Shown: positions 8,826 to 60,962 of the stretch, piece after piece | How the letters are laid out: every line of letters starts with the position of its first letter | How positions within the stretch are numbered: position 1 is the first letter of the stretch | Origin: an uncultured Candidatus Saccharibacteria bacterium | GTDB taxonomy: Bacteria; Patescibacteriota; Minisyncoccia; Phycocordibacterales; UBA1006 | DNA: 64,000 bases | Direction of reading: 5' to 3' | NCBI GenBank assembly: GCA_964350165.1 | Contig: CAYGJA010000001.1 | Location: forward strand, 4,947-68,946 | The notes under the pieces: model-generated | Database searches by the model: none | Told to the model about the DNA's origin: nothing | What the model saw: only the letters and a program-made list of their open reading frames with translations | Program-made: the position numbers and the translations under genes

Positions 8826-8832
8826 AGCCCTC

Positions 8833-10156: not shown

Positions 10157-10189
10157 TTGATTGTGGGATTAAAAAGTTCATATTAATTT

Positions 10190-10220
10190 TATTATACCAC
10201 TTCAAGGAACCTCTTGTCAA
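10190..10220 (-). promoter_or_regulatory. Sigma70-like promoter for the macro gene (TTGACA-N18-TATAAT on the minus strand)
   Basis: The reverse complement reads cattgacaagaggttccttgaagtggtataat, about 35 nt upstream of the 10156 start. Confidence 0.5.
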
Positions 10221-10240
10221 TGCTTTGCCCACTTAATTTA

Positions 10241-10279
10241 TCTCAAAAAAGTTCCAACTTCGCCCCAGACGGCCAACAA
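10241..10279 (+). repeat. Cassette-boundary repeat copy 3 (34-bp core)
   Basis: Perfect copy of the core. Confidence 0.8.
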
Positions 10280-10319
10280 GTAAGAACCCCTGGTCCATTA
10301 CTTATGATATGCTCCAAGC

Positions 10320-11378
10320 ATGATTCAAATTAGCTTTAATAAGGTTACCTGGTATTCAAAACTGCTAGCTATCGTTTTATTTGTGGGAACTTTCTTGCTA
10401 GCCTTTTATCTTGGAAACGAAACCGGAAAACTTAGCAACACTACTAACGATCGCGCATCTGAAGGGGTCAACTCAACTAACCCAACGCAAGAAATTTCTG
10501 TCTCAAAATCCTTGGGCACTCAAACCCAACACGAGCCGATTCCTGGCACAGATAAAAAGATTGCCACAGACATACTCACCAGGGAGGTGTACAATTATCT
10601 TTTTTCTCAGAAATGCTATCTCGAAGATTGTAGTCTGTTTTATTCCGCCATGAGTGATATCACAGAGACAGCAGTTAGCACTATAGACAAAGCACATCTT
10701 GTTGTGGGTGGTAAAAACTATGGATTACTTGTAGCTCCTCCGAATAAAAATGAGTACGAAGAGGACTCCACCAGCCCGGGTCCAGTCGGGCCAGTCAGAT
10801 TAACCTTCGTTGATTACACCAACTCGTCAGAACCTTTTGTGGCTCAAACTTTATACCTTGAAGGGCTTATGGCTTGGGCTAGAAATGATTATGAATATTA
10901 TGCGAGTATTTCTATAGACGGAAAATATCCAAACAACGGATTTCTTTCGGGAGATGCATTTTATTTTGGCAACGCTCCATATAATTGCGTCACGCTTTGT
11001 GGCAACAGAATGGATATCTGGTATAGAGTTCTTTTTGACAAGGGCCTACAAAAGTTTATTGCCCAAAAACCGAATTACACACAGCTTGAGTCTATTTTGA
11101 ATAAAAAAAACATCACCATTGATTGGAAAAAAGAACATGGTATATATCTGGGTGGTTTTGAAATCTTTACAACCACAGACCCTCTCACTTTTCTTGCCAT
11201 AAAATATGACGAAGAGACTTTAACCCCAGAATACATTGTTTCTTTCGAAATACTTGAGAAGAATGAATCAGATTATCGATATGAGTGGAACGGTTTAGAT
11301 TCTGATTTCATCCAAAATATCAAATTAATCTACAACATAGATTCAAGCTTAACGCTAGAGGATGTTGTCGGAAACTAA
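10320..11378 (+). CDS. Hypothetical secreted or membrane-anchored protein
   Basis: 352 aa with an N-terminal signal anchor (LLAIVLFVGTFLLAFYLG), an S/T-rich linker, and an aromatic-rich domain. Cassette 3. Confidence 0.5.
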   Translation: MIQISFNKVTWYSKLLAIVLFVGTFLLAFYLGNETGKLSNTTNDRASEGVNSTNPTQEISVSKSLGTQTQHEPIPGTDKKIATDILTREVYNYLFSQKCYLEDCSLFYSAMSDITETAVSTIDKAHLVVGGKNYGLLVAPPNKNEYEEDSTSPGPVGPVRLTFVDYTNSSEPFVAQTLYLEGLMAWARNDYEYYASISIDGKYPNNGFLSGDAFYFGNAPYNCVTLCGNRMDIWYRVLFDKGLQKFIAQKPNYTQLESILNKKNITIDWKKEHGIYLGGFEIFTTTDPLTFLAIKYDEETLTPEYIVSFEILEKNESDYRYEWNGLDSDFIQNIKLIYNIDSSLTLEDVVGN

Positions 11379-11410
11379 GCTAGAAATTTGATACATCCAA
11401 ATGCATCGAG

Positions 11411-11450
11411 AAAGTCCCAACATCGTCATGGGCGGCCAACAAATGCTTTT
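11411..11450 (+). repeat. Degenerate fourth copy of the cassette-boundary repeat
   Basis: GAAAGTCCCAACATCGTCATGGGCGGCCAACAAATGCTTTTT shares AAAGT.CCAAC and GGCCAACAAATGCTTTTT with copy 1. Confidence 0.6.
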
Positions 11451-11478
11451 TTGGTAGGTGTTTTTTGTAAAAGAAAAG

Positions 11479-11673
11479 CCCTCCACTAAAAAGAGAGGGC
11501 TTAAAAAAATGGGGCCCCATAGCAAGGCGTAACCCCATAAAACGTATAATTCTGCTTCCCATATCTAGCAGAATTTATTTTATGGGGGAGGGTGCGACCT
11601 AAAGTCGCACCACAGGCCTTTTCTGCGATCGCTGGCGATCGCAGAAGCTTTCGGCGCGTTACGTGCCGAAAGG
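11479..11673. other. Cluster of five consecutive stem-loops between convergent genes; structured RNA or stacked terminators
   Basis: Hairpins at 11479-11503 (GCCCTC/GAGGGC), 11534-11588 (a bipartite stem of about 19 bp, CCCCATAAAA...TTTTATGGGG), 11592-11612 (GGTGCGAC/GTCGCACC), 11623-11646 (TCTGCGATCGC/GCGATCGCAGA, holding two GCGATCGC octamers), and 11649-11673 (CTTTCGGC/GCCGAAAG). Confidence 0.4.
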
Positions 11674-11805
11674 CCACGGGGGGGCAGAAGCGAAAAAGAT
11701 ACTTCTTATGTTAAGTATAGCATATTTAGCATATTTGTCAAGTACTTCCATCAAAAAAGCGAAAGATTTCAAGGGTCTGAAATTTGCCAGAAAGGACAAG
11801 GCGTA

Positions 11806-12255
11806 TCAAGTCGTTGGAAGACCAGGAGATTCGTCCTTATATCTAAAAATTTGATATAAAGCCTTAAGAATAAGGCCTTCGATCTCGTCGTTGTCCAAAG
11901 TTCGGCCTTTTTCCTTCTCTTCTTCTTCTTTTTTCTCGAAAATCTTTTTGCGAAGATCTTTGATTTGTTCGTCAGTAAGAGGATTGCCTTGGTCTTCAAA
12001 TTTTTTCAACATCATCTGAAAATGATATTCAAGTAGTTCCTGTGTGTATTTTTCTAGTTCTTGGGGATTTATGGTGTTATCTTTTCCGGGTTTGGGTTGT
12101 GTGGGTGGAACCAGATCCTGAGCAGTGCTTTCTCCGCCGTACGTTGCCGCAGATATAAAAAAGGCTAAAGCAAGAGCTTTTCCCATTCTTAATATTCTTG
12201 TTTTAAAAGTATTCGGTTGCGGAAATTTTTCAAAGCTATTTTTCATAGTAGGCAA
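11806..12255 (-). CDS. Hypothetical secreted Lys/Glu-rich protein
   Basis: 149 aa with a signal peptide (ALALAFFISAATYGG) and a charged helical remainder. Confidence 0.45.
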   Translation of the reverse strand: MPTMKNSFEKFPQPNTFKTRILRMGKALALAFFISAATYGGESTAQDLVPPTQPKPGKDNTINPQELEKYTQELLEYHFQMMLKKFEDQGNPLTDEQIKDLRKKIFEKKEEEEKEKGRTLDNDEIEGLILKALYQIFRYKDESPGLPTT

Positions 12256-12408
12256 ACAAATGAAATGATTATTGTCTTTTTTATTATACCATTTCAGAAA
12301 ACCAAAATATCTCGGAGAAGAAATACCCCTAACCGGAAACGGGGGGGGAGACAGGCCCTGATTTTTGAGTGGCCTAAATTTGACAAGATAAATATTTTAT
12401 TGTTTTTG

Positions 12409-12417
12409 TGCTATACT
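12409..12417 (+). promoter_or_regulatory. Extended -10 (TGcTATACT) 6 nt upstream of a GTG start
   Basis: TGCTATACT-accatt-GTG(12424). Confidence 0.35.
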
Positions 12418-12423
12418 ACCATT

Positions 12424-13353
12424 GTGAATACAACAAAATCTTCTCTTGTCTTTTTTTTCTCTATCACTATCGTCCTGTCGCTTGGAACCTATTTTGTTTA
12501 TACAAAAAACAACACTGACCCGCTAATCAATAATTCAGCACCTCTCGAAGAAACTGTGGTTGAATACAAAAATACTGATTATGGTTTTACTTTTTCTTTG
12601 CCTGACAATTGGCTGGGATACTCTGTGGAGACCGATACCTGGACAGGGAATCCTCTGGGAAGTAGCGCCACATCAGAAATGGGACCGAAATTTTTAATAC
12701 GTAACCCAAAGTGGACCCACGACACTCCCTACCAAGACATACCAATTCTTGTTTTTACTTTGACCCAATGGGGCGCCTATCAGAATGAAAATTTTGCTGT
12801 GTCTGCAGCCCCTATCCCTGCCACCGAACTAGCTCGGAACAATGTGTACGTTTTTGCTTTGCCACCAAGATGGGATTTTGATTACAAACAGGATTACAAA
12901 GAAGCTCAGGATATTGTTCGAAGCAACCCACTACAAGCATTCGAAATCTCGAGCGCAATGATCCTAGAAGAAGGGCAGTATTGCTATGTTTATCATCACG
13001 AAGGAACCAAAGAAGAACCCTACACCGTAGACGAGCTGGTTGGTATTTATGTGCAAGGAGGAATCGTCGACGGAATGAAAACAGGAACCCAAAGTGGTCC
13101 AGACATGACGAACGGCTACTCGGGAACACTGGCGGGAACTATCCAAAAAAACATGATTGATGTTGTCTTTGCATACACCATCGAAGGTTCTAGCAGTAAA
13201 GAAAAAGAGATATATCGAGTAAAGGACGATCTCAGTGGAATTGAAAAATTACGTTACCCACTAGAAGAAAAAAACGGAGTGCTCGTGCCCGACAGAACCA
13301 AAGAATTTGAAGCTCTTTTTTATGCTCAAATTAGTTGCGAAACTTCAGACTAA
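12424..13353 (+). CDS. Hypothetical secreted protein (probable GTG start)
   Basis: The track ORF 12217..13353 has no ATG before its hydrophobic segment. The in-frame GTG at 12424 gives a signal anchor (SLVFFFSITIVLSLGTYFVY). No recognisable family. Confidence 0.45.
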   Translation: MNTTKSSLVFFFSITIVLSLGTYFVYTKNNTDPLINNSAPLEETVVEYKNTDYGFTFSLPDNWLGYSVETDTWTGNPLGSSATSEMGPKFLIRNPKWTHDTPYQDIPILVFTLTQWGAYQNENFAVSAAPIPATELARNNVYVFALPPRWDFDYKQDYKEAQDIVRSNPLQAFEISSAMILEEGQYCYVYHHEGTKEEPYTVDELVGIYVQGGIVDGMKTGTQSGPDMTNGYSGTLAGTIQKNMIDVVFAYTIEGSSSKEKEIYRVKDDLSGIEKLRYPLEEKNGVLVPDRTKEFEALFYAQISCETSD

Positions 13354-22135: not shown

Positions 22136-22192
22136 AATCAGTTGTGAACAGACGGTGACTGTTTGCCCTTGTTTTTGTGGCACCATGTAGAC

Positions 22193-23467
22193 ATGAGACT
22201 ACATCGAGCTTTTATATTTTTTATGGCTGGTTTTTTGGGAGGGATTATTGTTCTGGCTGGTTTTTTGCTTGCCATCCAAATGCAGAAAAAATACTCGGCC
22301 ATTGACGCCATCCAGGAACTGGCTTCTTCGGTTACTCAAGATTTTGTAATTAATCCTTATTCTGGATTGTTTAGTCAAAATTTCGAAACCATGACCTACG
22401 AAGACACTCCTTTTGCCGGCGGGTATCTGTCACTGTCACCAAGTGGTCGCTTTATTATTTTCAACACCAGTAATCTATCTGAACCGGGAACGTTCCTGGA
22501 GCGTTTCTACTTGGCTGATCTCATGACCGGAGAGCGTAAAGAAATATCAGGCACACCATTGCGTGACTGGGATGACGACAATGTCATTCTAACGACACTG
22601 GGTAACGAATTGCAGTTATTCGACACTATAAGCCCCGACAGCCCCCTCGAAAGCTGGCAATTCAGTAGCCCTATTTATTCTGCCAAACCTTCTCCCAAAG
22701 GCGATACACTGATAGTAAATACCCAGGACGGTGTCTATACCGCTGACCGTGCCAGTGGCACCAAAAGAAAAATAATAGACGGCGGACAACATGGTGCTTA
22801 CGCTTGGCTCCAAGACAACACTCGCCTGGTTGGCTTCCGGCAAATCCCAAACACACCGGGGAACAACATTCCTATTCACGAGCCAGTTATCTGGAATAGC
22901 CAGAACGGGGAATATGATATCTTGGTTGAAAACTTTCCAACTACCACCATCAACTACGTCGAATGGATTGTGCCTGATCAAATTGCACGCATAAACACTG
23001 GTTGGGATGATGGTTCTCGTGACTATGTCGTCAACGTGCAGTCACAAAGCTATCGCTATCTCGGAGAAACATCTGGTGATGGCAGCCTTAATCATCAAAA
23101 AAATATCAAGCGACTTGGCCTTAATGTTATCGAGGGCAATTTTGGTGATTTTTCCCAGGTAATCAAAAACACAACCTATTGGGGTAATGTGGAAAAGAAA
23201 GTAGCTTTTAGTGATTCATACCGAAGGTATCAATCCCAATTGCTCGACATGGATACCGCCATCTATTTACGTCAACAGATGACAAGTAGCTATGCCGAAA
23301 CAGAAGTAGTCAAGTTAGACCTGAATACTGGCAAAGAAACCGTACTCTACAAAGTAGATGGCTGGGTGCAAAACCTAGCGGTCAGCACTGACGGCCAGGA
23401 TACTTATTGGATTATCCCTGCTGGTGACAAATTAATCATTCGCTCGATCGAATCGGTTGATTTGTAG
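22193..23467 (+). CDS. Hypothetical membrane-anchored protein, probably beta-propeller (TolB-like)
   Basis: The track start at 22163 is TTG. The ATG at 22193 gives MRLHRAFIFFMAGFLGGIIVLAGF. The rest is rich in D/G/T/Y beta-strand repeats. The last 27 nt form a direct repeat with 26688..26714. Confidence 0.45.
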   Translation: MRLHRAFIFFMAGFLGGIIVLAGFLLAIQMQKKYSAIDAIQELASSVTQDFVINPYSGLFSQNFETMTYEDTPFAGGYLSLSPSGRFIIFNTSNLSEPGTFLERFYLADLMTGERKEISGTPLRDWDDDNVILTTLGNELQLFDTISPDSPLESWQFSSPIYSAKPSPKGDTLIVNTQDGVYTADRASGTKRKIIDGGQHGAYAWLQDNTRLVGFRQIPNTPGNNIPIHEPVIWNSQNGEYDILVENFPTTTINYVEWIVPDQIARINTGWDDGSRDYVVNVQSQSYRYLGETSGDGSLNHQKNIKRLGLNVIEGNFGDFSQVIKNTTYWGNVEKKVAFSDSYRRYQSQLLDMDTAIYLRQQMTSSYAETEVVKLDLNTGKETVLYKVDGWVQNLAVSTDGQDTYWIIPAGDKLIIRSIESVDL

Positions 23468-23609: not shown

Positions 23610-26585
23610 ATGCTTGTCGTCTCACAATCGCATTTTCAAATGAAAAAAAGTATTTTTTTTCTTATGGCCACGTTCTTCCTGCAGCAACTGGCTGTGGGTC
23701 AAGGCATCGGCGACAACACTTTTTTACCGACTGCTGGCGGCCCAGAGAGAATCCAGGTGATCTCTCTAGAAGATAACCCCTTCCTGGCAGAGCACCTGAC
23801 AGCAGGGGAGCAAATATCTTATGTGGCCCTAATTAGTCCCATGAGCATTGTTTACGGGCTAGGGGCCGTAAAAGATAGGCTCTGGGTACTCCAAGGACAT
23901 CAGCAGGAAATCGCAAACCTTCTCTCTACAGAAAATGATTTCAAAAGGAGAAAAGGAGTAGAAATCCTGCTGGAAGCCATCGCAAACCCCAACGCCGATC
24001 ACGGGGTAGAGCTGGTCTTTCACTGGAAAGACACTCTTCACCAGAGATTGGGTATACAGGGAAAGGTGTATAAAGCCGCGACCTGGGAAGAGAGTGCTGT
24101 TCCAGATCGATATTTTTTTGTGCCAGGAGAAGGGCACAGCATGCCGGCCGTGCCTTACCTAGCAGAAGAAAGGGACTCCCTAATGATGGGGGCAATTGCC
24201 ACCATTGAAAGAACCCTCGAAACGGAACAAATTTTCGTTCTGTTCGAGCAAGCTGCTGACATCAGCAGTATGGTACGCCAGAAGTTCACCACGCTGAACC
24301 TGGCGGACAACCAAGGGATTCTTTTGGCAGGTGACCCGAGAGTGGCTGCCATAATGGTAACTGAGGAAATTAGCAAAATGGCATTCCTCAGCCTGACAGC
24401 AACATACCTAAGCTGGCAGGCGCAACAGCAACAAAACCTGCTGTTTCGAGGTGGTCCGGGCCGAGAAATAGTGCTTCCAAAGCTAAAGTTTCCGCAACAA
24501 CCGGCAAAAACGCCGAGGATTCCAACTCCGGAACCCCCCAAGCCACCCTCACCCTCCCCAGAACAGGCTAAAAAACTGCAGGAATGGCTCCAAAGAGCTG
24601 CTAGTGCCATCAAGACCATAGCAAAAGTCTGGGGAGATTCGGTTGCCACAGCCTACGAAATTAGGCTAGAGAAAAAAGGTCCCGACGATGACGTTTTGGT
24701 CATATCGAGCCCTACCAACCCAAAAAACTATGTCCTGGTATACCCAAGCCCAGATCAAGAGGGCATACTCAGAATTGCGAACGGTAACATGCACGGTGAT
24801 TCTGTTCGTACCAGAACAGAGCACCGACCGATTGCATACTGGGATCTGGAAGGCGATGCTCCGAGCTTGCTTCCAAACAAGGTGCTTTTACCTATGGCAC
24901 CATACCTGGCACCAACAGACAAGGAGGCGCTGGTGGAATGGCTCATGCTTCCATTTACAGAACAATTTGGGTGGAGTCAAATCTGGTACTTGGTGCGAGT
25001 AGCAGAGGAAGGAACGACGTCTCCTCAATCGGCAAAAAAAGCCTACCCTGGATACAAGGTGGTACGCTACATATTACCAGCCTCTAACCAGGTTGACCCT
25101 CTCAACGAAGAAGAGAGTGGGCATATGAAGGTTTTTAGGACGAGAATCGGCTACCAAGCCGGGCTTTTGGAACAAGGGCTAAGGCTAGCCTTGGCTAAAG
25201 CTGAAGAAGGCGATACGGAAGCCGTAGCAACCTTCCTCGCAAGTGCGAGAGAATCAGCTCCAGGCGAGGTCTTGGATCTGCTCAGTAGATACAGTCCCGA
25301 CAGCAAAGAGAGAAGGTCTCTGCGTTATGCAGCCAAGAGACTAATCCTCATGAGGGAAGGGCTGGAGAAAATAACAATTTTTCTGGAGGGGGAGGGCTCG
25401 GATATACGAGTACTCTATGAAGAGCTCCAAAGACAAAGAGAAATCCTCTACAAAGAGGAACTCCGAACGCTAAAAGAAGAGCTGGATCAACTTAAGAACA
25501 GATCGCAAAAACTCCTGGATGGAATCCGCAGAATTCAGGAAAAGGCGAAGAGAGGCAGGGCTTCTCACGAAGACATCACCGAGGCTTATCGCAAGATGGA
25601 AAGGATACTAGCGATTAGCGAAGGCCTGGAAGATGCCAGAACTGCTTTGGTCGGATTTCAGATCTGGGCAGAGGACATGCGGGGAAAGATCTACTCGGAC
25701 GACGCCGACGATGGACACATCGCGAATGAAAAAAACGAGGTGTCGAGACTTGTCCAGAAAGACCTCCAGATTGCTTGGCTACTATTGGCAAAAGCTCCAG
25801 ATGGAGAGATTGCCAACAAGGTACAAATGGCGGAGGGGTATTTTCAAAACATGCTCCAGTTCTATCATCCCAGGGAAACGATAAGCCCCGAAACACAAAA
25901 AGAACTCCGACGGTCTGCTAGCGCCATAGCAACCCTTCACAGGGAGGTAGGAAAGATGGAAACGTACCTGAACAAGGTACAAGACAGGTACTATCGTCTT
26001 CGTGGAAAGAAGTGGCAAAGCATGGTGACTGCCTTTGTCGGGAGCTATCGGCTGCTCCGAAAGTTTTCAAGTGCTTATCGAGAAATCGAAAGAATAGAAA
26101 CGCTGATTACCGGCGACCTCACTGATGAACAACAAGGCCATTGGGTGCAGATTCTGCAAGAAATACGAACGCAGCGAATCCAGCTGCTGGTCGATGAAGA
26201 AATCTTCCGGATTTCTTCAGAAATGACAGACAGGGTCCCGGAAGTCTACAGAGGAGAGCTTAAAAAATCTATAGCTCAACTACTGCTAAAAGTTTCCAAG
26301 GGAGAAATAGAATCTCCTAATGGTTACGGAAAATCCCCTTTTCACTTTGTAGAAAGGGGTACAGTAGAGGAGTTATTAACAAAGCTTCCTCATTTGCGGA
26401 CGGAAGGCGCTACGCCTGATGCCTATAAGAGATTTACAGGACAGCTTCTTGCCTTGTTGGGCAAGCAGCACAGCCTGGACGGTCTGGATCAGGCTCACCT
26501 GATTGGGCTTTCCGTCGAAATATCGACAAGATTCGATATCCATGAAGGCGTGGCAGCCATAGCCAATCCGGCGGAAAAAAAATAG
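23610..26585 (+). CDS. Large secreted protein (991 aa): signal peptide, Pro-rich linker, C-terminal coiled-coil region
   Basis: The ATG at 23610 or the ATG at 23640 (MKKSIFFLMATFFLQQLAVGQG) gives a signal peptide. There is a PTPEPPKPPSPSPEQ linker and long heptad-like stretches (ELQRQREILYKEELRTLKEELDQLKNRSQKLL). No recognisable family. Confidence 0.55.
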   Translation: MLVVSQSHFQMKKSIFFLMATFFLQQLAVGQGIGDNTFLPTAGGPERIQVISLEDNPFLAEHLTAGEQISYVALISPMSIVYGLGAVKDRLWVLQGHQQEIANLLSTENDFKRRKGVEILLEAIANPNADHGVELVFHWKDTLHQRLGIQGKVYKAATWEESAVPDRYFFVPGEGHSMPAVPYLAEERDSLMMGAIATIERTLETEQIFVLFEQAADISSMVRQKFTTLNLADNQGILLAGDPRVAAIMVTEEISKMAFLSLTATYLSWQAQQQQNLLFRGGPGREIVLPKLKFPQQPAKTPRIPTPEPPKPPSPSPEQAKKLQEWLQRAASAIKTIAKVWGDSVATAYEIRLEKKGPDDDVLVISSPTNPKNYVLVYPSPDQEGILRIANGNMHGDSVRTRTEHRPIAYWDLEGDAPSLLPNKVLLPMAPYLAPTDKEALVEWLMLPFTEQFGWSQIWYLVRVAEEGTTSPQSAKKAYPGYKVVRYILPASNQVDPLNEEESGHMKVFRTRIGYQAGLLEQGLRLALAKAEEGDTEAVATFLASARESAPGEVLDLLSRYSPDSKERRSLRYAAKRLILMREGLEKITIFLEGEGSDIRVLYEELQRQREILYKEELRTLKEELDQLKNRSQKLLDGIRRIQEKAKRGRASHEDITEAYRKMERILAISEGLEDARTALVGFQIWAEDMRGKIYSDDADDGHIANEKNEVSRLVQKDLQIAWLLLAKAPDGEIANKVQMAEGYFQNMLQFYHPRETISPETQKELRRSASAIATLHREVGKMETYLNKVQDRYYRLRGKKWQSMVTAFVGSYRLLRKFSSAYREIERIETLITGDLTDEQQGHWVQILQEIRTQRIQLLVDEEIFRISSEMTDRVPEVYRGELKKSIAQLLLKVSKGEIESPNGYGKSPFHFVERGTVEELLTKLPHLRTEGATPDAYKRFTGQLLALLGKQHSLDGLDQAHLIGLSVEISTRFDIHEGVAAIANPAEKK

Positions 26586-30020: not shown

Positions 30021-30986
30021 ATGGTCAAATCTAACACCTTTATCACAATTATTCTCGTCGCTCTGATTGCTCTTGCTGCCGGCTGGTACATAGGACAAGA
30101 AGATCTGGTAAATCTAAACAAAACAAGCGAGGAAGCTATTGAAACAGAAGAAACTCCAATTATTGTAGAAATACCAGAAAAACCAGAAATCGTACTCCCT
30201 GAATTAAATGGTCTAGAAATTAATGTCCCAGATGAAGAGGTGACGGTACAAATTAATCAAGAGGCGACCGAATCCGGCAGTACTACTTCTCTTTTTATTG
30301 GAACAACAACAGATAATGAAAACCAGACTACAAACACCGTTACCTTGGTAGACAATCAACTCACGGCAATTAATGCAGACCATTTTGTTGTGCCTTTTTT
30401 GCTAAATACTGGCGGTACTGGAACTTTTTTATATCTTGGTCTTCTGGAAAACATAAACGGAATCGTCAACCACACTCAATCGGTGTTTTTGGGTGATCGC
30501 ATTGGGTTTGAATCTGTCTTGGTGAATAACGGAGTGATTAGCGTAAAAACACTAGAACGTTATGAGGGTCAGCCCTTTAGCGCTGAGCCAGAAATCTCGA
30601 TAGCACACAATTTTGTCTTGGAAAATAATGAACTAGTGTTAATGGAAAAGTATACAAACATAGAACCTTCTGAAGTATTCTTATCAGTATCTCTTACCAC
30701 CGAAACGCTATTTCCAATCGAATTAACCGGCTCGCTTCCTCAAAACTGGTTCTTTGAAGGAGATTTTCCAATCACAATTCTTGTAGATGGGGAAAAAGCT
30801 TTTTCAACTTTTGGAGTTCGCGACGAAACCAGCACCGAAAACGCGCAACAATCTTTTACGGCCACTCTATCTCCAGAAGAGTCTCTAGACTGGACAAACA
30901 AAGAAGTCACTCTGGTGCTCGAAAAAGACAATGTTTCCGAGAACCGCTCTCTTGATGCTAGTTACAGTAGAATAATTGCGCGCTAA
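30021..30986 (+). CDS. Hypothetical membrane-anchored extracellular protein
   Basis: 321 aa with an N-terminal TM helix, an acidic linker, and a T/N-rich beta domain. Confidence 0.4.
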   Translation: MVKSNTFITIILVALIALAAGWYIGQEDLVNLNKTSEEAIETEETPIIVEIPEKPEIVLPELNGLEINVPDEEVTVQINQEATESGSTTSLFIGTTTDNENQTTNTVTLVDNQLTAINADHFVVPFLLNTGGTGTFLYLGLLENINGIVNHTQSVFLGDRIGFESVLVNNGVISVKTLERYEGQPFSAEPEISIAHNFVLENNELVLMEKYTNIEPSEVFLSVSLTTETLFPIELTGSLPQNWFFEGDFPITILVDGEKAFSTFGVRDETSTENAQQSFTATLSPEESLDWTNKEVTLVLEKDNVSENRSLDASYSRIIAR

Positions 30987-53743: not shown

Positions 53744-54337
53744 ATGTACGAAGGCGACTTTTTCAAAAAACCAAACAGCAAACCCAAACTCAAACAAATT
53801 GTAGAAAGAATACAATCCTTTGCTTCTCCCAAACTTTTTCTGACCCTTCTTACAATCGCAATGCTTAATTCCGAACTTCCAGCACAAGCAACCGGAATGT
53901 CTACGTCCATAGCAGACATAGGACTCACTAGCGGCCCCCCAATGATCGATATTCCCAACCCCACAGGAAAAGAGGGGACAGAATACACCGAAGCGAACGG
54001 GCCGCCGCCGATAGTGGATATCTTTACAGTATCTTCAGAAACAACTAATCAGCCACAAACAATTAACCAGCCTCCGGAAATGGTTACTATCGTCTCAGGG
54101 GATGACCGATTCCGAGGAACAGACAGAAAAATTGCTCAACGATTCTTCCAATTACACCCTAGTTTTGACATGGAAAACATATATGGTGTCTATGAAACAG
54201 AGTACCAAAGAGACAATGCCCTAGAGGCCGCAAAAAAATTCGATGATTCTTCACAATGGGACATCGAAACAATATCTGGAACTACAGACGGTGATCCCGG
54301 TGATGAAAAAAAATTCTTTATTGTATTCAAAAAATAA
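53744..54337 (+). CDS. Hypothetical secreted protein
   Basis: 197 aa with a signal peptide and a Pro/Thr-rich region. Confidence 0.4.
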   Translation: MYEGDFFKKPNSKPKLKQIVERIQSFASPKLFLTLLTIAMLNSELPAQATGMSTSIADIGLTSGPPMIDIPNPTGKEGTEYTEANGPPPIVDIFTVSSETTNQPQTINQPPEMVTIVSGDDRFRGTDRKIAQRFFQLHPSFDMENIYGVYETEYQRDNALEAAKKFDDSSQWDIETISGTTDGDPGDEKKFFIVFKK

Positions 54338-54398: not shown

Positions 54399-54470
54399 GG
54401 CCCTATCGTCTAACGGTTAGGACGCCAGGTTCTCATCCTGGAAATCGGAGTTCGATTCTCCGTAGGGTCA
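54399..54470 (+). tRNA. tRNA-Glu (anticodon CUC)
   Basis: Acceptor GGCCCUA/UAGGGUC. Anticodon stem CCAGG/CCUGG with loop UUCUCAU. T-arm CGGAG-UUCGAUU-CUCCG. No encoded CCA. Confidence 0.85.
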
Positions 54471-54550
54471 CATCATCTAAAAGCCTTCTGCAACAACACT
54501 CTTTGAAGTGGGATTGTGGGGTATTCAGAACTGAATACTTGACATTTAAT
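54460..54550 (+). repeat. attB-like site: tRNA-Glu 3' end (CCGTAGGGTCAC) plus a downstream flank duplicated at 58314
   Basis: The 26 nt CCGTAGGGTCACATCATCTAAAAGCC are identical at 58314..58339. The next roughly 65 nt are about 75% identical. Confidence 0.75.
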
Positions 54551-54637
54551 CTAAAAAATGGTATTATACTTTTGATTAATTCTTTTTAAATTCACCCGTA
54601 CGAAAACGAAATCCCTGGTACGGGCAGGGTAAAAAAC

Positions 54638-55411
54638 ATGAAAATTACTAATCACAGCGGCGCATGGGCCGCAGAGATTGAGATTTTGGAAGGGCCCATG
54701 TCGGCCCTGTGTCTGGAGATTGGCATTTTTTGCCGCAACCGCCAGCGCGCACGTCGGACCTTCACCATCGGCCAAGCCTTGGCCTCTGGCAAGTACCCAG
54801 AAGGACTTGCCGAGGTTGAGACCTGGCTCGAGAAGACGGCCGGCTCAGCCGAGCTCAAGCACAAGGTGCTTGCAGCGGTCGCAGTGGCCATCTTGCGGAC
54901 GGAGGTATCCACCTATGACTGGTTCCTAATGGCAGAAATTGTTGGCCAAGAGAAACCTTTTGGAAAAGAGTTCGAGGAAGGATACCGAGTCGAGGTGCCA
55001 CAGCGTCTCCTCCCCTCAAGCTGGACTGGCGAAGCCAAGTTTGGCAATTTGGAGGCTGCCGTGGCCTACGCCAATGACCAGGCGGACAATTTGGAGGCCT
55101 TGGAAATTGTCCACGAGGACAAATGGGGGAACCGCACCCCGATCGCCCTTGTGAAGCCTGCAAGCATACTGTGCTTGCATGGCGAAGTTCACTACCTGGC
55201 CAAACGTCTGTCTTTCGATCTCGAAACGATCGAAAGGTGGGTGGTACGCCATTGGGGATTAAAAGAGGGGTTCGAAACCCACCTTGAGGACTTGGAAGAC
55301 CTAAAAGCTGAGATTTGGAGCTACTCCAGACTCACAGCCCATTGGGGCATGAGAGTGTGCCCAGCCCTAGGCTGGGATACAGACTGGCAACCGCAAGAAG
55401 AGGAGCTTTAG
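54638..55411 (+). CDS. Hypothetical protein encoded by a conspicuously GC-rich ORF
   Basis: 257 aa. Its codon usage is rich in GCC/CGC/GGC, unlike the neighbouring genes. No recognisable domain. It is the first cassette after tRNA-Glu. Confidence 0.5.
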   Translation: MKITNHSGAWAAEIEILEGPMSALCLEIGIFCRNRQRARRTFTIGQALASGKYPEGLAEVETWLEKTAGSAELKHKVLAAVAVAILRTEVSTYDWFLMAEIVGQEKPFGKEFEEGYRVEVPQRLLPSSWTGEAKFGNLEAAVAYANDQADNLEALEIVHEDKWGNRTPIALVKPASILCLHGEVHYLAKRLSFDLETIERWVVRHWGLKEGFETHLEDLEDLKAEIWSYSRLTAHWGMRVCPALGWDTDWQPQEEEL

Positions 55412-55528
55412 GCTCACTATCTAATAAGAAAAAGGGTCGGATGACATCAGTTGTCCGACCGCTTTTTATTTGGGGAATTTAGATGCTCGCCGCCAAATTT
55501 CTGGTGGCTTTTTTAATCTCACTCCGCA

Positions 55529-55690
55529 CCCCCAAAAGTTCTGAAAACCAAGCCGTAGGGTCACTAGAATTTAAAGTGTTGTAAATAAAGGGTTTTAGAG
55601 GGTGTCCTAGGGGGTGTTCCGAATTCTTGGTGAACATGTTTTCAAAAGATAGTTTTTGGTGGGTTATAATTGTTTTATACAAATTCACGT
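55529..55690 (+). repeat. Island repeat copy A (full): tRNA-like arm, core CCGTAGGGTCAC, and a roughly 130-bp conserved arm ending in TTATAATTGTTTTATACAAATTCACG
   Basis: About 95% identical to copy D (58908..59068). Core at 55553..55564. The arm ends about 20 nt before the DUF2726 ATG. Confidence 0.8.
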
Positions 55691-55710
55691 TATTTTTAAA
55701 GATTCTCTCA

Positions 55711-56217
55711 ATGACAAATCTCACCATTCTCATCATCGTCGGCGTTGGATTTGCCGCTATTGTTTACTTCTTTGGCAAGAAAGAACCCTCTGAGGGAAAA
55801 ACCAAGGAAGAATATCACTACCAACCAAAGAAGTTCTTTATGACGCGCGCCGAGCATGAATGCTTTGATGCTTTGGTCGAGGCAGTGGGGGATCAGTATC
55901 ATGTTCTAGCCCAAGTACATCTGAATTCAATTGTGGACCACAAAGTGACGGGTCAAAACTGGAAAGCAGCATTTCGGCACATCAGCCAAAAATCTGTCGA
56001 CTTTGTGCTCTGTGACAAGGATTACCTATCTCCAAAACTAGCGATAGAGCTTGATGACAAAACACACGAAAGACCTGATCGGATGTTGCGTGATGCTGAG
56101 GTGGAGAGAATCCTAAAAGATGCCAAGGTTCCTTTGCTCAGATTGGAAAACCATGGGAGCTTTGATGTGGGAGAGATAAAGGAAAAGATTCAAGGTTCTC
56201 TCGTAGTAATAGGGTAA
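55711..56217 (+). CDS. DUF2726-family protein with an N-terminal TM anchor (paralogue of 6891..7385)
   Basis: The ATG at 55711 gives MTNLTILIIVGVGFAAIVYFF. The core is SVDFVLCDKDYLSPKLAIELDDKTH. The track ORF 55627 starts inside the repeat. Confidence 0.6.
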   Translation: MTNLTILIIVGVGFAAIVYFFGKKEPSEGKTKEEYHYQPKKFFMTRAEHECFDALVEAVGDQYHVLAQVHLNSIVDHKVTGQNWKAAFRHISQKSVDFVLCDKDYLSPKLAIELDDKTHERPDRMLRDAEVERILKDAKVPLLRLENHGSFDVGEIKEKIQGSLVVIG

Positions 56218-56290
56218 TTATGGCTTTACTAAGCCCTTTTGGGGTGGTATTTTCTCAATGAGAAATAGAATACTTAACTTCTAATTACTA

Positions 56291-57190
56291 ATGAAACGTT
56301 GGAAAACAATTCCAAAAAATCGAAAGCTGGCTCTACTGGCTGTAGGGTTGCTTGTACTTGCCATGGTTGGTTGTGTTTCAAAGAGATCGATCAGCTCTAT
56401 TGCCACGAACAACACTGATGCGATGCCTGAAAACCCTCTTACCGGGTTGGATTATGTACCACCGTCTATTGATGGAGTTTCCTATGGCGACTATCTTGAT
56501 TCGATTCCTGATGGTTCCATGTATATTGGCTCAAGCCGGGGTCCGATTGGCATAGACGCTAGTTTTGTGGGTGGTGATACTGAAATTTTTCAACGAGATC
56601 GATTTTTGGCTCAAAACGAGACATATAATTATTATTCTCCTTATAATATTGGCACATCGTATCAAGGTGTGACTGGCCAGGGAGAATACACCGCCCATAC
56701 CGCTAAGATTAGATTGGAGTATAACGGAGTGGAGGTTTGGTCGGGAGAACGGTACAAGCTTTACGAATTATTCACAGATTCACCTAAAAAGGGGTTCTTG
56801 GTATCACTAGGATGGATATCTGAGTCCGAGATTCTCTTCAATGTAAAAAGTGATGGCTGGGGTCAGAGTTTAGAAATGTGGATACTTGATGTCTCTAACA
56901 TGGCTACTCGTAAGCTGAATTTGCCCGAAAACTATGTTTCGGTGCCATATTTGTCGCCTAATGGTAAATATGTAATGTTCGGCATCAAGACTTCACCTGA
57001 AGGTGATGCAGATTGGGTTGATGAATGGTTCTTGTATGAAATACAAACCAACAAGATTACTCCGTTACCACCAGGCTCATATGGGGCCTGGTATCTTCCT
57101 GTCGATACGTACAACAAAATCGAAGAAGCATTGCAAGCCTCGATGGGATCAGGGTTTTTACACCCAAAAGTTCGGAAAACCAAGCCGTAG
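56291..57190 (+). CDS. Hypothetical lipoprotein, beta-propeller-like
   Basis: 299 aa with a lipobox (LLVLAMVGC) and a Y/G/D-rich beta-rich domain. The last 9 codons and the stop are encoded by repeat copy B. Confidence 0.5.
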   Translation: MKRWKTIPKNRKLALLAVGLLVLAMVGCVSKRSISSIATNNTDAMPENPLTGLDYVPPSIDGVSYGDYLDSIPDGSMYIGSSRGPIGIDASFVGGDTEIFQRDRFLAQNETYNYYSPYNIGTSYQGVTGQGEYTAHTAKIRLEYNGVEVWSGERYKLYELFTDSPKKGFLVSLGWISESEILFNVKSDGWGQSLEMWILDVSNMATRKLNLPENYVSVPYLSPNGKYVMFGIKTSPEGDADWVDEWFLYEIQTNKITPLPPGSYGAWYLPVDTYNKIEEALQASMGSGFLHPKVRKTKP

Positions 57191-57270
57191 GGTCACTAGA
57201 ATTTAAAGTGTTGTAAATAAAGGGGTTTTTGGGGGTGTCCTAGGGGGTGTTCCGAATTATTTGTGAACGT
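57163..57270 (+). repeat. Island repeat copy B (arm truncated)
   Basis: Core at 57185..57196, followed by TAGAATTTAAAGTGTTGTAAATAAAGGGG...GTGTTCCGAATT, after which the similarity is lost. Confidence 0.75.
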
Positions 57271-57322
57271 GTGAAGATTGTGGAAGATATGTAAAACAGC
57301 CAGCAAACAAAGAGTCAGATTC

Positions 57323-58312
57323 TCAAATCTCTTTATTTCGCATTCTCACTAATTCAGTCTCTTGTATAGAATCGCCTTGGTCACCAAAAAATAAACTTTC
57401 AAGCACGGACCAGAGATAGAGCGAGGATGAGATAACAATTATCCAATGGGCTTGTAATATATAAGTTTCTACAGCAAAAACCCCAACTCCCACTAAGAGC
57501 GCAAGAAGAAGGTGAATAGTTTTTGCATCCTCTCTCACATACTCGATCCCTTTGCGTCCACGATTCTCGGTGTGAAGAAATGCCAAAGCCAAAATCTGCA
57601 AGGAAGATATGACAACGGGAACAATATAGGCACCCTCTCTTGTTTCATAAGCAATAACACCCGTACCAATAGCCGATGCGACGAGCGACAGATACACAAA
57701 CATTTTTATTGCGCTGAATTGGAAGGGGGTTGGTTTTTTTGAGGTAAAAGCAAAGAAAAGCCCGCACGCTAATCCAAAAAATACGAACGGGGGTAAGAGA
57801 TTAAAAAGTCCACCATCATTCCATATTTCTAAAATAAGACTCAAAACCTCTCCCCGTAAAGGTGTTAGCCCCAACAAGAGTATCCATATTAGTGAGAGTA
57901 AAAAAACGGTCGATTCAGTGATTTTGGGCAAAAATCCTAATTTCTTTGCAAGCCCTTGCATGTAAAAGTGACTGTTGTCCCCAATACGACGTGTTTTATT
58001 GGGATAGTAATGCATCCAAGGCGCAACGATTCCTAAAAGCAACCCACCAAAATAAACAGCAAAACGTACTCCAAGTCCAACCCCTAGCTCTTGCAATTGA
58101 GTTGCCATGTAATACATACCGAAACTCAAGGTAACCAAGATGGCCACACCAATACCGCGCTTAATACGCAACCCTTTCTGACGGTCTTTTCTCATGAATC
58201 TAGTATATCGCAACCAGTGAGACTCAAGAATACTTAAATGATGAACTCTTATTTTACCCAATTTTCTAACGTAACAATAAGGCTTTTGATACCCAAAAGT
58301 TCGGAAAACCAA
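57323..58312 (-). CDS. Hypothetical polytopic membrane protein (about 8 TM); true start probably internal
   Basis: 329 aa. The N-terminal 15 residues (MVFRTFG...) are just the reverse complement of repeat copy C with a TTG start. The likely real start is a downstream ATG. Confidence 0.45.
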   Translation of the reverse strand: MVFRTFGYQKPYCYVRKLGKIRVHHLSILESHWLRYTRFMRKDRQKGLRIKRGIGVAILVTLSFGMYYMATQLQELGVGLGVRFAVYFGGLLLGIVAPWMHYYPNKTRRIGDNSHFYMQGLAKKLGFLPKITESTVFLLSLIWILLLGLTPLRGEVLSLILEIWNDGGLFNLLPPFVFFGLACGLFFAFTSKKPTPFQFSAIKMFVYLSLVASAIGTGVIAYETREGAYIVPVVISSLQILALAFLHTENRGRKGIEYVREDAKTIHLLLALLVGVGVFAVETYILQAHWIIVISSSLYLWSVLESLFFGDQGDSIQETELVRMRNKEI

Positions 58313-58400
58313 GCCGTAGGGTCACATCATCTAAAAGCCCTGTATAGCAACACCTTGTGAAGTGGAGTTATGGGGTTTTCAGAACTACTTATATTGACTT
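58256..58400 (+). repeat. Island repeat copy C (hybrid): repeat-type left arm, core, then tRNA-Glu-type right flank
   Basis: ACCCAATTTTCTAACGTAACAATAAG...CCCAAAAGTTCGGAAAACCAAG + CCGTAGGGTCAC (58314..58325) + ATCATCTAAAAGCC... This is a P-O-B'-like junction. Confidence 0.75.
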
Positions 58401-58810
58401 ATCTTCTTATGTATGGTTTGTTATTGATGAATCCAAGAACCTTTACCATGAAAGTAAAAAGACGCAGCATAGCCGTGGCAAGCTTGCTGTTTATCCTCGC
58501 CATGGCAGCCCAGATTCTGGGCCACCATGATTTAGCCACCTTCGTTTTTGTTCTACTGCTGGCCCCAGTGGTGGTCGAGGTCACTCAAAAACACCCGCAA
58601 CACCGCTGGTGGATTGGGTACATCTTTGCCGCGATCATCATGTGGGTCGACCCAGGGGTCGTACCCACTTTCTGCGGCACGAATGAACTGCCCGATACCG
58701 GGTGGTGGCCATACCTTGCCCGGCCGCTCGAGTATTTCGTCTCACTACTGCTCGCCATCATTGCGCTGATGACGGTAGAGCCGGAGCTGCGAATCAAAAA
58801 TGAAGACTAG
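58370..58810 (+). CDS. Hypothetical membrane protein (4 TM)
   Basis: 146 aa. The 5' end lies within the duplicated tRNA-flank sequence. Confidence 0.4.
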   Translation: MGFSELLILTYLLMYGLLLMNPRTFTMKVKRRSIAVASLLFILAMAAQILGHHDLATFVFVLLLAPVVVEVTQKHPQHRWWIGYIFAAIIMWVDPGVVPTFCGTNELPDTGWWPYLARPLEYFVSLLLAIIALMTVEPELRIKNED

Positions 58811-58907
58811 ACTGACTGTCAAAGCCGCCCTTTAGGAAGGCGGCTTCTTTTTGCATACTTTCTCTAAAACACCAGATCGGATACTGCTTTTCTAATGTCA
58901 CCCCTCA

Positions 58908-59068
58908 ACCCCAAAAGTTCCGAAATTCAAGCTATTGGCTCACTAGAATTTAAAGTGTTGTAAATAAAGGGTTTTAGAGGGTGCCCTAGGGGGTGTTCCG
59001 AATTCTTAGCGAAGATGTTTTCAAAAGATAGTTTTTGGTGAGTTATAATTGTTTTATACAAATTCACG
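58908..59068 (+). repeat. Island repeat copy D (full arm, degenerate core CTATTGGCTCAC)
   Basis: The arm is about 95% identical to copy A. It ends 10 nt before the ATG at 59078. Confidence 0.75.
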
Positions 59069-59077
59069 TAAAATCTT

Positions 59078-59416
59078 ATGGAATCACTACCAAGCACAGA
59101 TAACAGCTATAAGGGACACATAGAAAGACTAAAAGCCGAATTGGCTCTTGCCACAAATCCAACAGATGTACTACGGATTATTGCAGAGGGTATCAGCATG
59201 GTTGATAAGATCGAAGACCTTTTGCTTTCTGTTGAATTACAAAAAGTTAAACCCGCGTACGAAACAGAAAACCTAACGACTCTAGACAAAGCTAGAACCA
59301 TGGCCATGTCTTTAGATTTGTTTCCAAAGATAGCGGGAGCAATGGCGCGCGTGATAATCTCTGACTTGAAAAAAAGATTTATTGGAGATATTCCGGAAGA
59401 AACTCTAGAAAAGTAA
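59078..59416 (+). CDS. Hypothetical helical protein
   Basis: 112 aa with no recognisable motif. It lies directly downstream of repeat arm D. Confidence 0.4.
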   Translation: MESLPSTDNSYKGHIERLKAELALATNPTDVLRIIAEGISMVDKIEDLLLSVELQKVKPAYETENLTTLDKARTMAMSLDLFPKIAGAMARVIISDLKKRFIGDIPEETLEK

Positions 59417-59478
59417 CTCGTCTTTATTCTGACTATCTACCAGAGAAATGAAATCTTTTCCTGTTATATTTTCATTCA

Positions 59479-59570
59479 ACCCAATTTTCTAACGTAACAA
59501 TAAGAATTTTGGTCCCGAAAAGTTCGGAAAACCTAGCCGTAGGGTCACTAGAATTTAAAGTGTTGTAAAA
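59479..59570 (+). repeat. Island repeat copy E (left arm plus core, right arm truncated)
   Basis: CCCAATTTTCTAACGTAACAATAAG...AAAAGTTCGGAAAACCTAG + CCGTAGGGTCAC (59536..59547) + TAGAATTTAAAGTGTTGTAAAAAACCC. Confidence 0.7.
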
Positions 59571-59696: not shown

Positions 59697-60962
59697 ATGA
59701 AAAGACCAATCACGAGAAAAAAGGCGGCGATCACAATCATCGCCATCCTATTCCTTGCACTCGGCGCCAGGGGACAGGTTGCCATCGACACGGCGAAAAT
59801 AATAAAAATTATTAGAGTGTCGGACAGTCTCAACCGGGCCGACATGGTCGCGGTCGAACAATATCGCCTAAACCCTACCGCTGTTACGCGCCCAACAGAA
59901 GCATACCAGCGACTCGACCCCAAGACGGGGGGAGCATTAAGAAAAAAATGGTTTCTAGGGAGATACGGGGAAAACCTGAGCTGGGAACAGCTTCAAGGTT
60001 TTTTGCGAGAAAAAGCCCTGTTCTTTGGTTGCTCTAACATCATCAGTCTGGAGCATCATCCAAATCTTTTGATGTTTGATTTTTATCTTTTTGAAATCAA
60101 GCAAGAACAGGAGGTAAACCTTAATCGGTATCTACTGCCTGGTATGAAAAAATTTCCGGCCAAAAATAGAAAAGGCATCTTGTACGTGGTGCGGCCGATA
60201 CTACTGCCGTACCAAGTTAGGAAATTTGAATTAGGCGGGATAGCAATGGAAGGTCTATTGGGCCGAACAAGTGCTTTTGTTCTTGATGGGTCCACGCAAG
60301 CGGAGAACTCGACCTGTTCTTTTTTCTTTTTCCGATACCTCATCCAGAAAGGGTACAGGAAAACCAATTCATTTTTCCATGACTACGAACGTCTTCCAAA
60401 AAAAGACGGCTCTCTGTATTGGCTGGCGGATAGCCTGGGCCTAAAAAAAGAATGGGAAAGAATCAGAAAAATGGTTGCCAAGGGGAAGCTTGGAACCTAT
60501 ACCGCTAACGAGTTAGGGCATGTTATCGCTAGCAAAACACACCAAAATTCTAGCGAGCCTTCCCCCGAAAGGAGTCAGGCTGGCGAGGCTTTTTCTGATG
60601 GCACGAGCCTTACTTGGCTTCTCAAAAATAAGAACATCCCTGTTTTTGTGCTGGTATTGAACTCCTACATTAACAGGGTTCAGCAATCTGGAGCTCCAGA
60701 TTATGCGGAAACAGAGCGCATAACCAATCTCGTGATAAAAAAAATGGAGATCTCCATTCCCGCCCAATTGCGAGAAAAAAAGCGCTACGGCGACGCAAGA
60801 TTGATTGAATCACTCTTTGCTGATTCGCCCCCAAAAACAGCTCTGTTAAAAATATATATTTTGTTTTCAAGCAGAGATTATAAGCGATTAGTAATGAAGC
60901 CCTTTGTGAGAGGCTTCACTGAGGAGCTAAGAAGGGGAGACATTTTGGGGATATTTGAATAG
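59697..60962 (+). CDS. Hypothetical protein (421 aa)
   Basis: N-terminal hydrophobic segment. No recognisable catalytic motifs. It is not a tyrosine or serine recombinase by motif. Confidence 0.4.
   Translation: MKRPITRKKAAITIIAILFLALGARGQVAIDTAKIIKIIRVSDSLNRADMVAVEQYRLNPTAVTRPTEAYQRLDPKTGGALRKKWFLGRYGENLSWEQLQGFLREKALFFGCSNIISLEHHPNLLMFDFYLFEIKQEQEVNLNRYLLPGMKKFPAKNRKGILYVVRPILLPYQVRKFELGGIAMEGLLGRTSAFVLDGSTQAENSTCSFFFFRYLIQKGYRKTNSFFHDYERLPKKDGSLYWLADSLGLKKEWERIRKMVAKGKLGTYTANELGHVIASKTHQNSSEPSPERSQAGEAFSDGTSLTWLLKNKNIPVFVLVLNSYINRVQQSGAPDYAETERITNLVIKKMEISIPAQLREKKRYGDARLIESLFADSPPKTALLKIYILFSSRDYKRLVMKPFVRGFTEELRRGDILGIFE

Follow-up and report, generated by a model that had tools for sequence, protein, structure and literature searches.

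A tRNA-Glu-anchored array of small gene cassettes bordered by repeats of the tRNA 3′ end in a Saccharibacteria genome, and its possible origin by site-specific accretion

The DNA analyzed here, referred to as the window, comprises 64,000 nucleotides of contig CAYGJA010000001.1 from an uncultured Candidatus Saccharibacteria bacterium (assembly GCA_964350165.1), and it contains, downstream of an intact tRNA-Glu gene, an array of five small gene cassettes (1081, 1620, 1117, 606 and 593 bp) bounded by direct repeats of the tRNA 3′ end. The final 12 nucleotides of the tRNA (54460-54471) constitute a core sequence, CCGTAGGGTCAC, exact copies of which begin at 54460, 55553, 57185, 58314 and 59537, where about 0.008 would be expected by chance. 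These recurrences had been recognized in a first-pass annotation made from the sequence alone, which set the last of them at 59536, one nucleotide off. All core copies are directly oriented and confined to this 5 kb. We refer to the tRNA as site 0 and to the downstream copies as sites A to E, in each of which the core is flanked by a left and a right arm; the left arms (P arms) fall into two types, La and P-long, and the right arms into two subtypes, R1 and R2. The components of the array are as follows (window coordinates, strand, feature; ORF, open reading frame).

54399-54471, +: intact tRNA-Glu(CTC), site 0 (ARAGORN; Rfam tRNA, 61.8 bits, with the end placed at 54470)
54472-54570, +: R2a right arm, with promoter-like TTGACA-17-TATTAT at 54539-54567
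54590-54637, +: ORF1 leader, TTCACCCGTACGAAAACGAAATCCCTGGTACGGGCAGGGTAAAA, 45 nt of it identical in the related locus L017
54638-55411, +: cassette 1, ORF1, 257 aa, GC 0.556, no Pfam family
55435-55552, +: two terminator-like hairpins, then La and the P arm of site A
55553-55564, +: core A, exact
55565-55700, +: R1 right arm of site A, full length, with promoter-like TTCAAA-18-TATAAT at 55641-55670
55711-56217, +: cassette 2, membrane-anchored DUF2726 protein (Pfam E = 1.5e-29)
56291-57190, +: cassette 2, lipoprotein-like ORF3, reading across the P arm, with its TAG stop inside core B
57160-57196, +: P arm (P-long type) and exact core B
57197-57272, +: R1 at site B, cut to about 75 nt and lacking the promoter part
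57323-58195, −: cassette 3, ORF4, membrane protein, inverted relative to the arms
58251-58325, +: P-long arm and exact core C
58326-58400, +: R2b right arm of site C
58370-58810, +: cassette 4, ORF5, membrane protein, GC 0.549 (start at 58370 or 58445)
58836-58943, +: La, P arm and variant core of site D
58932-58943, +: core D, variant CTATTGGCTCAC
58944-59077, +: R1 right arm of site D, full length, with promoter-like TTCAAA-18-TATAAT at 59020-59049
59078-59416, +: cassette 5, ORF6, 112 aa, no family
59474-59548, +: P-long arm and exact core E
59549-59569, +: R1 at site E, cut to 21 nt, followed by unique sequence
59697-60962: ORF beyond the array

The sequences flanking the cores are repeated as well. 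The P arm motif AAAGTTCGGAAAACCAAG is present in five copies with at most three mismatches (0.2 expected), the start of R1, TAGAATTTAAAGTGTTGTAAA, in four exact copies (0.01 expected), and a 26-nt R1 motif, GGGTGTCCTAGGGGGTGTTCCGAATT, in three copies (0 expected); within the window all three are found only between 55.5 and 59.6 kb and always on the + strand, which is that of the tRNA. An intact tRNA gene accompanied by displaced 3′ fragments, here four exact direct repeats embedded in pseudo-tRNA arms, is the Islander-type signature, in which tRNA-targeting integrases leave a regenerated gene together with displaced fragments that mark the integration (PMC4383910). The Islander definition further calls for a tyrosine integrase gene within the island, and no recombinase domain was found by Pfam in any island ORF.

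The two right-arm subtypes differ in their first bases and in their placement: downstream of the tRNA and of site C stands R2, starting with ATCATCTAAAAGCC, and downstream of sites A, B, D and E stands R1, starting with TAGAATTTAAAG. The core and R2 are shared by the tRNA flank and site C at 84% over 73 nt, and the repeat common to sites A and D extends over 184 nt at 91%, with their R1 arms 95% identical over 75 nt; the three types of site originally distinguished are as described. The labels attached to them are another matter. When R1 and R2 are compared without gaps, in register from the tRNA end, they match at 32–36 of 62 positions, whereas randomly paired stretches match at 16.0 ± 3.6 positions with a maximum of 31 over 20,000 trials. 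The two subtypes are thus homologous in register, and the arms earlier called B-prime and P-prime are two versions of one arm rather than a chromosomal and an element-borne sequence. As B-prime also travels with cassettes at the related loci L015 and L017, the attB/attP/attL/attR terminology does not apply in its original form. The full-length R arms contain promoter-like sites of sigma-70 type lying 10–70 nt 5′ of start codons, which is in keeping, for those arms, with the proposal that each unit brings its own promoter; it does not extend to the truncated R1 arms at sites B and E, nor to the inverted ORF4.

The left arms have CCCAAAAGTTCNGAAANNCAAGC in common and diverge upstream of it. The La type, at sites A and D, starts at the T-run of a terminator. 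The P-long type, at sites C and E and by similarity B, aligns to tRNA-Glu from position 2 onwards (for example ACCCAATTTTCTAACG versus GCCCTATCGTCTAACG), and is a decayed near-full-length pseudo-tRNA-Glu, so that the likeness of the P arm to a tRNA T-arm, as originally reported, was correct but understated. The pseudo-tRNAs are 53–66% identical to the real tRNA, and those of sites C and E are 91% identical to each other (over 70 nt, with a 94-nt left-arm repeat at 82%). Because the P arms share derived features by which they differ from the real tRNA, they have spread as a family of sites and not arisen by independent decay. Both arms also contain a TTCNGAA palindrome, for example at 57163-57180 in a P arm and at 55610-55624 in an R arm, preceded by a run of three or four C in P arms and of four G in R arms; together with tandem GGGGT(G/T)T motifs in the R arms these are candidate protein-binding sites.

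Arm types are paired by cassette. Cassettes 1 and 4, like the single cassette of L015, are of type 2: they open with R2, close with La and carry GC-rich cargo. Cassettes 2, 3 and 5 are of type 1, opening with R1, closing with P-long and carrying AT-rich cargo. The pairing holds in six of six, an outcome that random assortment would give 1 time in 20. It follows that each junction is a hybrid, to which one cassette contributes its P arm and its downstream neighbor the R arm, and comparison of the junctions is in keeping with this. Junctions A and D are 74% identical on the left, differ at 4 of 12 core positions and are 95% identical on the right; C and E are 91% identical on the left and have right arms of different subtypes; and site D and the L015 site are 86% identical on the left, the variant core included, with unrelated sequences on the right. 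In every junction the arm type switches at the core, as expected from head-to-tail insertion of discrete units at a fixed core. Recombination at a fixed core, as first proposed, thus finds support both in the differing histories of the arms across every junction and in their pairing by cassette.

No recombination genes were found in the five units bounded by P-core-R sites; units flanked by attL/attR-type repeats and devoid of integration and transfer genes are the mark of cis-mobilizable elements (CIMEs) and accretion arrays. Of the cargo listed originally, the DUF2726 protein and the GC-rich ORF1 are corroborated, and no Pfam family was found for any other cargo ORF. ORF3, which was compared with its homologues to see whether the P arm truncates it, has only weak ones; the best match, at 33% identity, covers 265 aa at the N terminus of a protein of 1511 aa. 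Against a window GC content of 0.43, both ORF1 and ORF5 are GC-rich. None of the cassette proteins matches PADLOC, and the idea of a defense island was dropped. The ORF1 leader can form a hairpin (CCCGUAC/GUACGGG, z = −0.45) with an overlapping alternative pairing (CCCUG/CAGGG) and has no Rfam match; it may be a cis-regulatory RNA. The TAG stops of both ORF1 (55404-55419) and ORF3 (57183-57198) are embedded in core-like sequence (AGCTTTAGGCTCACTA versus AGCCGTAGGGTCACTA), and the copy at the ORF1 stop may be a further degenerate site or a coincidence. Past the R1 stub of site E, between 59570 and 59660, a TTGACA-type promoter-like site is followed by a terminator-like hairpin, AAAGCCCGTTCGGGCTTT, with no ORF between them, an arrangement that could represent a cassette stripped of its gene or else a small RNA.

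Arms of the same families are found at related loci. L015 (JGI 3300036198), whose MurF is 49% identical to that of the window, has a tRNA-Glu gene followed by R2 with TTGACA-17-TATTAT, an IS30-like insertion, a GC-rich 59-aa ORF, a terminator, and a La-P arm that carries a variant core, CCATTGGCTCAC, and gives way to unrelated sequence; it is a single type 2 cassette with different cargo. The arms are 86–91% identical to those of the window at the nucleotide level, whereas the DNA of the penicillin-binding protein and MurF genes is only 66–71% identical. In particular, 54399-54532 of the window, the tRNA included, is 89.6% identical to L015, with 50 of 62 arm positions matching; the core and R2b (58314-58390) are 90.9% identical to the L015 core and R2; and 58836-58943 is 86% identical to L015 5487-5593, variant core included. 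The core of site D, near 58933, had been regarded as degenerate, and its presence in L015 shows it to be a conserved variant rather than a product of random decay. The GC content of the type 2 cargo is 0.55–0.62, that of the L015 genome about 0.50–0.53 and that of the window host 0.43, and the resemblance of the L015 genome to the GC-rich type 2 cargo of the window points to transfer of whole cassettes between lineages. The IS30-like element (L015 4255-5245) encodes a 303-aa HTH_38/HTH_32 protein, has 17-nt inverted repeats and lies between the R2 promoter and the 59-aa ORF. We considered its gene as a source of the recombinase and rejected it, since the element is an ordinary insertion sequence (IS) with inverted repeats of its own, inserted between the R2 promoter and the cargo.

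Other loci extend this pattern. At L017, the sole ORF1 homologue found (59% amino acid identity) is preceded by R2 and by the identical 45-nt leader (L017 113-160), and the R2 flank of the window recurs in L015 and L017 at 80–91% nucleotide identity. At L005 and L013, whose MurF is 59% identical, R1 lies immediately 3′ of tRNA-Glu. L018 is another array, starting from a variant tRNA-Glu 3′ end, and contains a DUF2726 gene that is 98% identical in nucleotide sequence to that of cassette 2 in a different gene context. A deletion scar lies at 2918-3105 of the same locus, where a pseudo-tRNA-like site, GGGTTCGAGCACGAGAAGGCTCAC, gives way to the initial 36 nt of R1 and to a piece of the DUF2726 3′ end, and the motif CGAGAAGGNTC occurs five times in the 4-kb contig, suggesting another core variant. 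Arms are thus shared between lineages around different cargo, in agreement with the original view of the units as portable. The repeats are found only in tRNA-Glu islands or flanking homologues of cassette genes, and the cargo varies, which is not the behavior of an invariant block or of a lineage-wide promoter or untranslated region (UTR) family.

Variation past tRNA-Glu also takes other forms. L008 has a MurF identical to that of L009 and L010, and the gene content differs from 101 nt past tRNA-Glu; the divergence (L008 1700-1800 versus L009 1719-1820) comes right after a T-arm-like hairpin, AGAGTTCGACTCTCT. The more distant L011 and L023 have variable small-gene islands past tRNA-Glu that are without these arms. 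On the other side of the gene, a tRNA-Glu 5′ fragment of about 24–53 nt lies just upstream of the intact tRNA-Glu at L005 1434-1575, L006 11283-11448 and L021 9867-10150, accompanied by 130–230 nt of partly conserved sequence; these fragments may be the scar of events 5′ of the tRNA. The corresponding position in the window is occupied by a 197-aa ORF (53744-54337).

The architecture is not peculiar to tRNA-Glu, as a second array lies elsewhere in the window.

6817-12267, +: analogous array starting from tRNA-Gln (6817-6888)

Here a 38-nt repeat, CTCAAAAAAGTTCCAACTTCGCCCCAGACGGCCAACAA, occurs at 8740, 9256, 10242 and 11405, with a degenerate tRNA-Gln end and flank at 12246. The 3′ part of the repeat resembles the tRNA-Gln 3′ end at 14 of 18 positions, as counted by hand, and AAAAGTTC, in the 5′ part, is also present in the Glu P arm. 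Between the repeats lie modules of one gene each, among them NUDIX, Macro and a 352-aa ORF, and a DUF2726 paralogue and an AbiU2 protein adjoin tRNA-Gln. Two T-arm-like fragments, TAGGTTCGAACCCGAGT and TTAGTTTCGATCCTTCAGCCGG, are present in non-coding DNA of this array, at 9359-9375 and 9452-9475.

We favor, with confidence a little better than even, the interpretation that the Glu array arose by site-specific accretion, small cassettes devoid of an integrase being added at the tRNA 3′ end by a recombinase acting in trans. The proposal is built on the repeats, the two arm families, the hybrid junctions, the conservation of arms across lineages with different cargo, and the fact that no local recombinase was detected; circular intermediates, the recombinase itself, current activity and promoter function we infer. 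The inserted unit would consist of an R arm, one or two ORFs, usually a terminator, and a P arm derived from a decayed tRNA-Glu copy. As a circle, such a cassette would carry an attachment (att) site of the form P-core-R, about 55–190 bp in length; by recombination of this site with the tRNA core, or with that of a junction already in place, the cassette would be inserted head-to-tail. Each insertion would regenerate the tRNA 3′ end and leave a hybrid of the upstream P arm, the core and the downstream R arm, in a reaction presumably of the tyrosine integrase type at the 12-bp core. The full site of about 190 bp at A and D, with its tandem GGGGT(G/T)T and TTCNGAA motifs, would fit a complex att site with arm-type binding sites. 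The recombinase may come from a gene or helper element elsewhere, a supply in trans being postulated because none was detected in the window, and later deletions and homologous exchange would then shorten arms and shuffle genes.

Several observations weigh against site-specific accretion. No recombinase Pfam domain is present in the island ORFs or in the 30 ORFs of at least 180 aa that were scanned between 1 and 41 kb, as expected from the earlier statement that the window lacks an integrase, although 6 of those 30 have no Pfam match at all (at E <= 0.001; 278–991 aa, at 2886-3722, 10320-11378, 12217-13353, 22163-23467, 23610-26585 and 30021-30986). Precomputed annotations of Logan contigs on both flanks, covering 10 kb on each side, include no recombinase either, and none was found in any related locus fetched. 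DNA scans of viral contigs with core-R1, the P arm, core-R2 and the Gln site gave no matches, nor did distant blastn searches of phage records with two sites or a search of plasmid records with site A only. Dyad symmetry of the kind expected in a recombinase core is not obvious by eye, and neither a circular junction nor an excision polymorphism at the core was observed. In the Gln array the repeats differ from the resident tRNA 3′ end. The DUF2726 gene, 98% identical in nucleotide sequence between its two contexts, has moved with breakpoints that do not coincide with the core, and L018 has deletion scars; with the truncated arms, such breakpoints imply that, whatever the origin of the array, the island is additionally reshaped by deletion and homologous exchange. 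Finally, Logan contigs confirm individual segments and the order of the cassettes comes from the source assembly alone. The independent Logan assemblies of this organism have their contig ends precisely at the repeats (L001 stops within the tRNA 3′ end and L002 begins at core E, with L003 covering cassette 2), which puts cassette order and polymorphism beyond their reach.

The array could instead be a fossil of full-size integrative elements, either prophages or similar to integrative and conjugative or mobilizable elements (ICEs, IMEs), each with its own integrase directed to tRNA-Glu and since deleted to a CIME-like, att-flanked and immobile stub. Elements that are att-flanked but lack an integrase ordinarily originate in this way (PMC5704250; for tycheposon remnants, 10.1101/2020.12.28.424599), the pairing of arms by cassette would be expected here too, and there are deletion scars: R1 is cut to 75, 36 and 21 nt, L018 retains a 3′ fragment of DUF2726, and ORF3 runs into the P arm. 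It is nonetheless unlikely in our view, since the compact order of R2 arm with promoter, one ORF, terminator and La arm is common to three type 2 cassettes that differ in cargo, two of them in the window and the third in L015, and would require three independent decays to the same architecture; moreover, there are no fragments of integrase or phage genes between the arms, and no related full-size element was found in the viral, phage or plasmid collections. A parent ICE or IME was likewise not found in viral contigs, phage and plasmid records or the related loci. A scan of viral contigs for DUF2726 found none, and in the genome-contig collection the P-core pattern gave 0 matches and a MurF query no confirmed relative. 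Another possibility dispenses with a site-specific recombinase altogether, the duplicated tRNA-Glu and its trailer serving as homology anchors between which cassettes are exchanged, once DNA has been taken up, through homologous or homology-facilitated illegitimate recombination, in the manner of the minimal mobile elements of naturally competent bacteria. The window does encode DprA and a type IV pilin-like protein, the arms offer 55–190 bp of 85–95% homology, and the homology of R1 and R2, in register from the tRNA end, is what duplicates of a single tRNA-plus-trailer locus would show; the exchange of DUF2726 away from the core is also as expected. We regard it as rather improbable, because it leaves unexplained why a core identical to the functional tRNA sits beside a pseudo-tRNA diverged beyond recognition, why subtypes switch at the core edge in every junction, and why the copies are direct and tRNA-linked with a second array using the 3′ end of another tRNA.

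That the repeats are not recombination sites at all but a reused cis-regulatory or RNA element, such as a promoter or UTR, a processing signal or a small RNA, would account for the good promoter-like sites upstream of start codons in the full-length R arms and for the conserved R blocks, whose TTCNGAA palindrome could bind a regulator. It is very hard to reconcile with the retention of promoterless, truncated R1 arms at sites B and E and in L018, with the inversion of ORF4, with the absence of the repeats from the other 58 kb of the window and their restriction to tRNA-linked islands, or with a pseudo-tRNA and an exact tRNA 3′ end that have no obvious regulatory rationale, and we accord it very little probability. 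Nor is there an RNA signature: Rfam has no match to the repeats, and their folding is no better than that of shuffled sequences (z −1.3 to +0.3). Between 54000 and 60000 the only Rfam match above the gathering threshold is tRNA-Glu, with two others at E <= 1 elsewhere falling far below theirs, and by inspection the P arm is without a T-stem, so structured RNA or tRNA-like punctuation was set aside. These folds, computed as single-stranded DNA for both strands, are also the ground on which attC hairpins, as in integrons or clusters of attC sites lacking integron integrases (CALINs), were rejected; integrons have intI next to attI with a Pc promoter and mostly promoterless cassettes, and here no integrase was found and promoter-like sites lie inside full-length cassette arms. 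Ends of insertion sequences or miniature inverted-repeat transposable elements were discarded, the repeats being direct only and an inverted-repeat search giving no matching termini. Modules mobilized by the Xer recombinases (integrative mobile elements exploiting Xer, or pdif modules) were likewise rejected, all sites being direct and not inverted, with a 28-bp dif-like dyad absent as judged by eye only. A dif/Xer origin was also dropped: the start of R1 is superficially like Bacillus dif, R2 has no such likeness, and the sites are direct.

If the preferred interpretation of site-specific accretion by integrase-less cassettes is extended, one may speculate that a clade of Patescibacteria has an integron-like capture platform at tRNA 3′ ends, at least those of Glu and Gln, where single-gene cassettes with a promoter-bearing R arm and a pseudo-tRNA P arm circulate between lineages and are inserted and excised at the 12-bp core by a chromosomal or helper-encoded recombinase in trans; we put this forward tentatively, as possible but on balance doubtful. 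Patescibacteria have tiny genomes, and their mobile elements and modes of gene acquisition are little understood. Cassettes moving in trans would, if this is correct, be smaller than any self-contained integrative unit so far described that targets a tRNA, would represent a functional counterpart of integrons derived from the tRNA-integrase lineage, and would provide ultra-small genomes with a dedicated locus for flexible genes; the conserved arms would ease the recovery of variable genes from metagenomes. Even on a conservative reading, the array reveals the layout of a tRNA-anchored flexible island in this phylum and explains why assemblies break at tRNA-Glu in these organisms.

A search of the literature on Patescibacteria or the candidate phyla radiation (CPR) with tRNA, integrase or island found no title or abstract describing such arrays. 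The opinion that no comparable system had been described was nevertheless too strong, as tandem accretion with integrase-less, att-flanked elements is known for CIMEs (PMC5704250), and tycheposon islands have neighbors separated only by a partial tRNA, with partial tRNAs scattered among them (10.1101/2020.12.28.424599). CIME arrays of the ICESt1/ICESt3 family and many IMEs resemble the array described here in their head-to-tail arrangement, in att-type direct repeats with the 3′ end of the target gene, in units devoid of an integrase and in chimeric att junctions. They differ in that the units here are only 0.6–1.6 kb, with one or two genes and in several cases promoter- and terminator-like signals, that there is no known parent ICE or IME, that the host is of Patescibacteria type, and that the att site includes a decayed near-full-length tRNA. 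The tycheposon islands of Prochlorococcus are likewise tRNA-anchored and hypervariable, situated in a streamlined genome, and have partial tRNA copies between elements, but tycheposons are several kilobases long and encode a tyrosine or serine recombinase of their own as well as replication genes, none of which were found here. With integrons and CALINs the array shares mostly single-gene cassettes in one orientation, each with a conserved site, and a recombinase that may be absent locally; it departs from them in having no attC hairpins and no IntI, an anchor that is a tRNA 3′ end rather than attI, and promoter-like sites of its own. The staphylococcal cassette chromosome elements (SCC and psi-SCC) at rlmH (orfX) also form tandem series, some of them recombinase-less, with direct repeats of the target-gene end and a recombinase that can act in trans, yet their target is protein-coding, they extend over tens of kilobases, and their serine recombinases (Ccr) are known and nearby. 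What distinguishes the array at tRNA-Glu is the combination of cassette-sized units, two paired families of arms, arms conserved across lineages around different cargo, a near-full-length pseudo-tRNA, an unusual host phylum and a second array at another tRNA.

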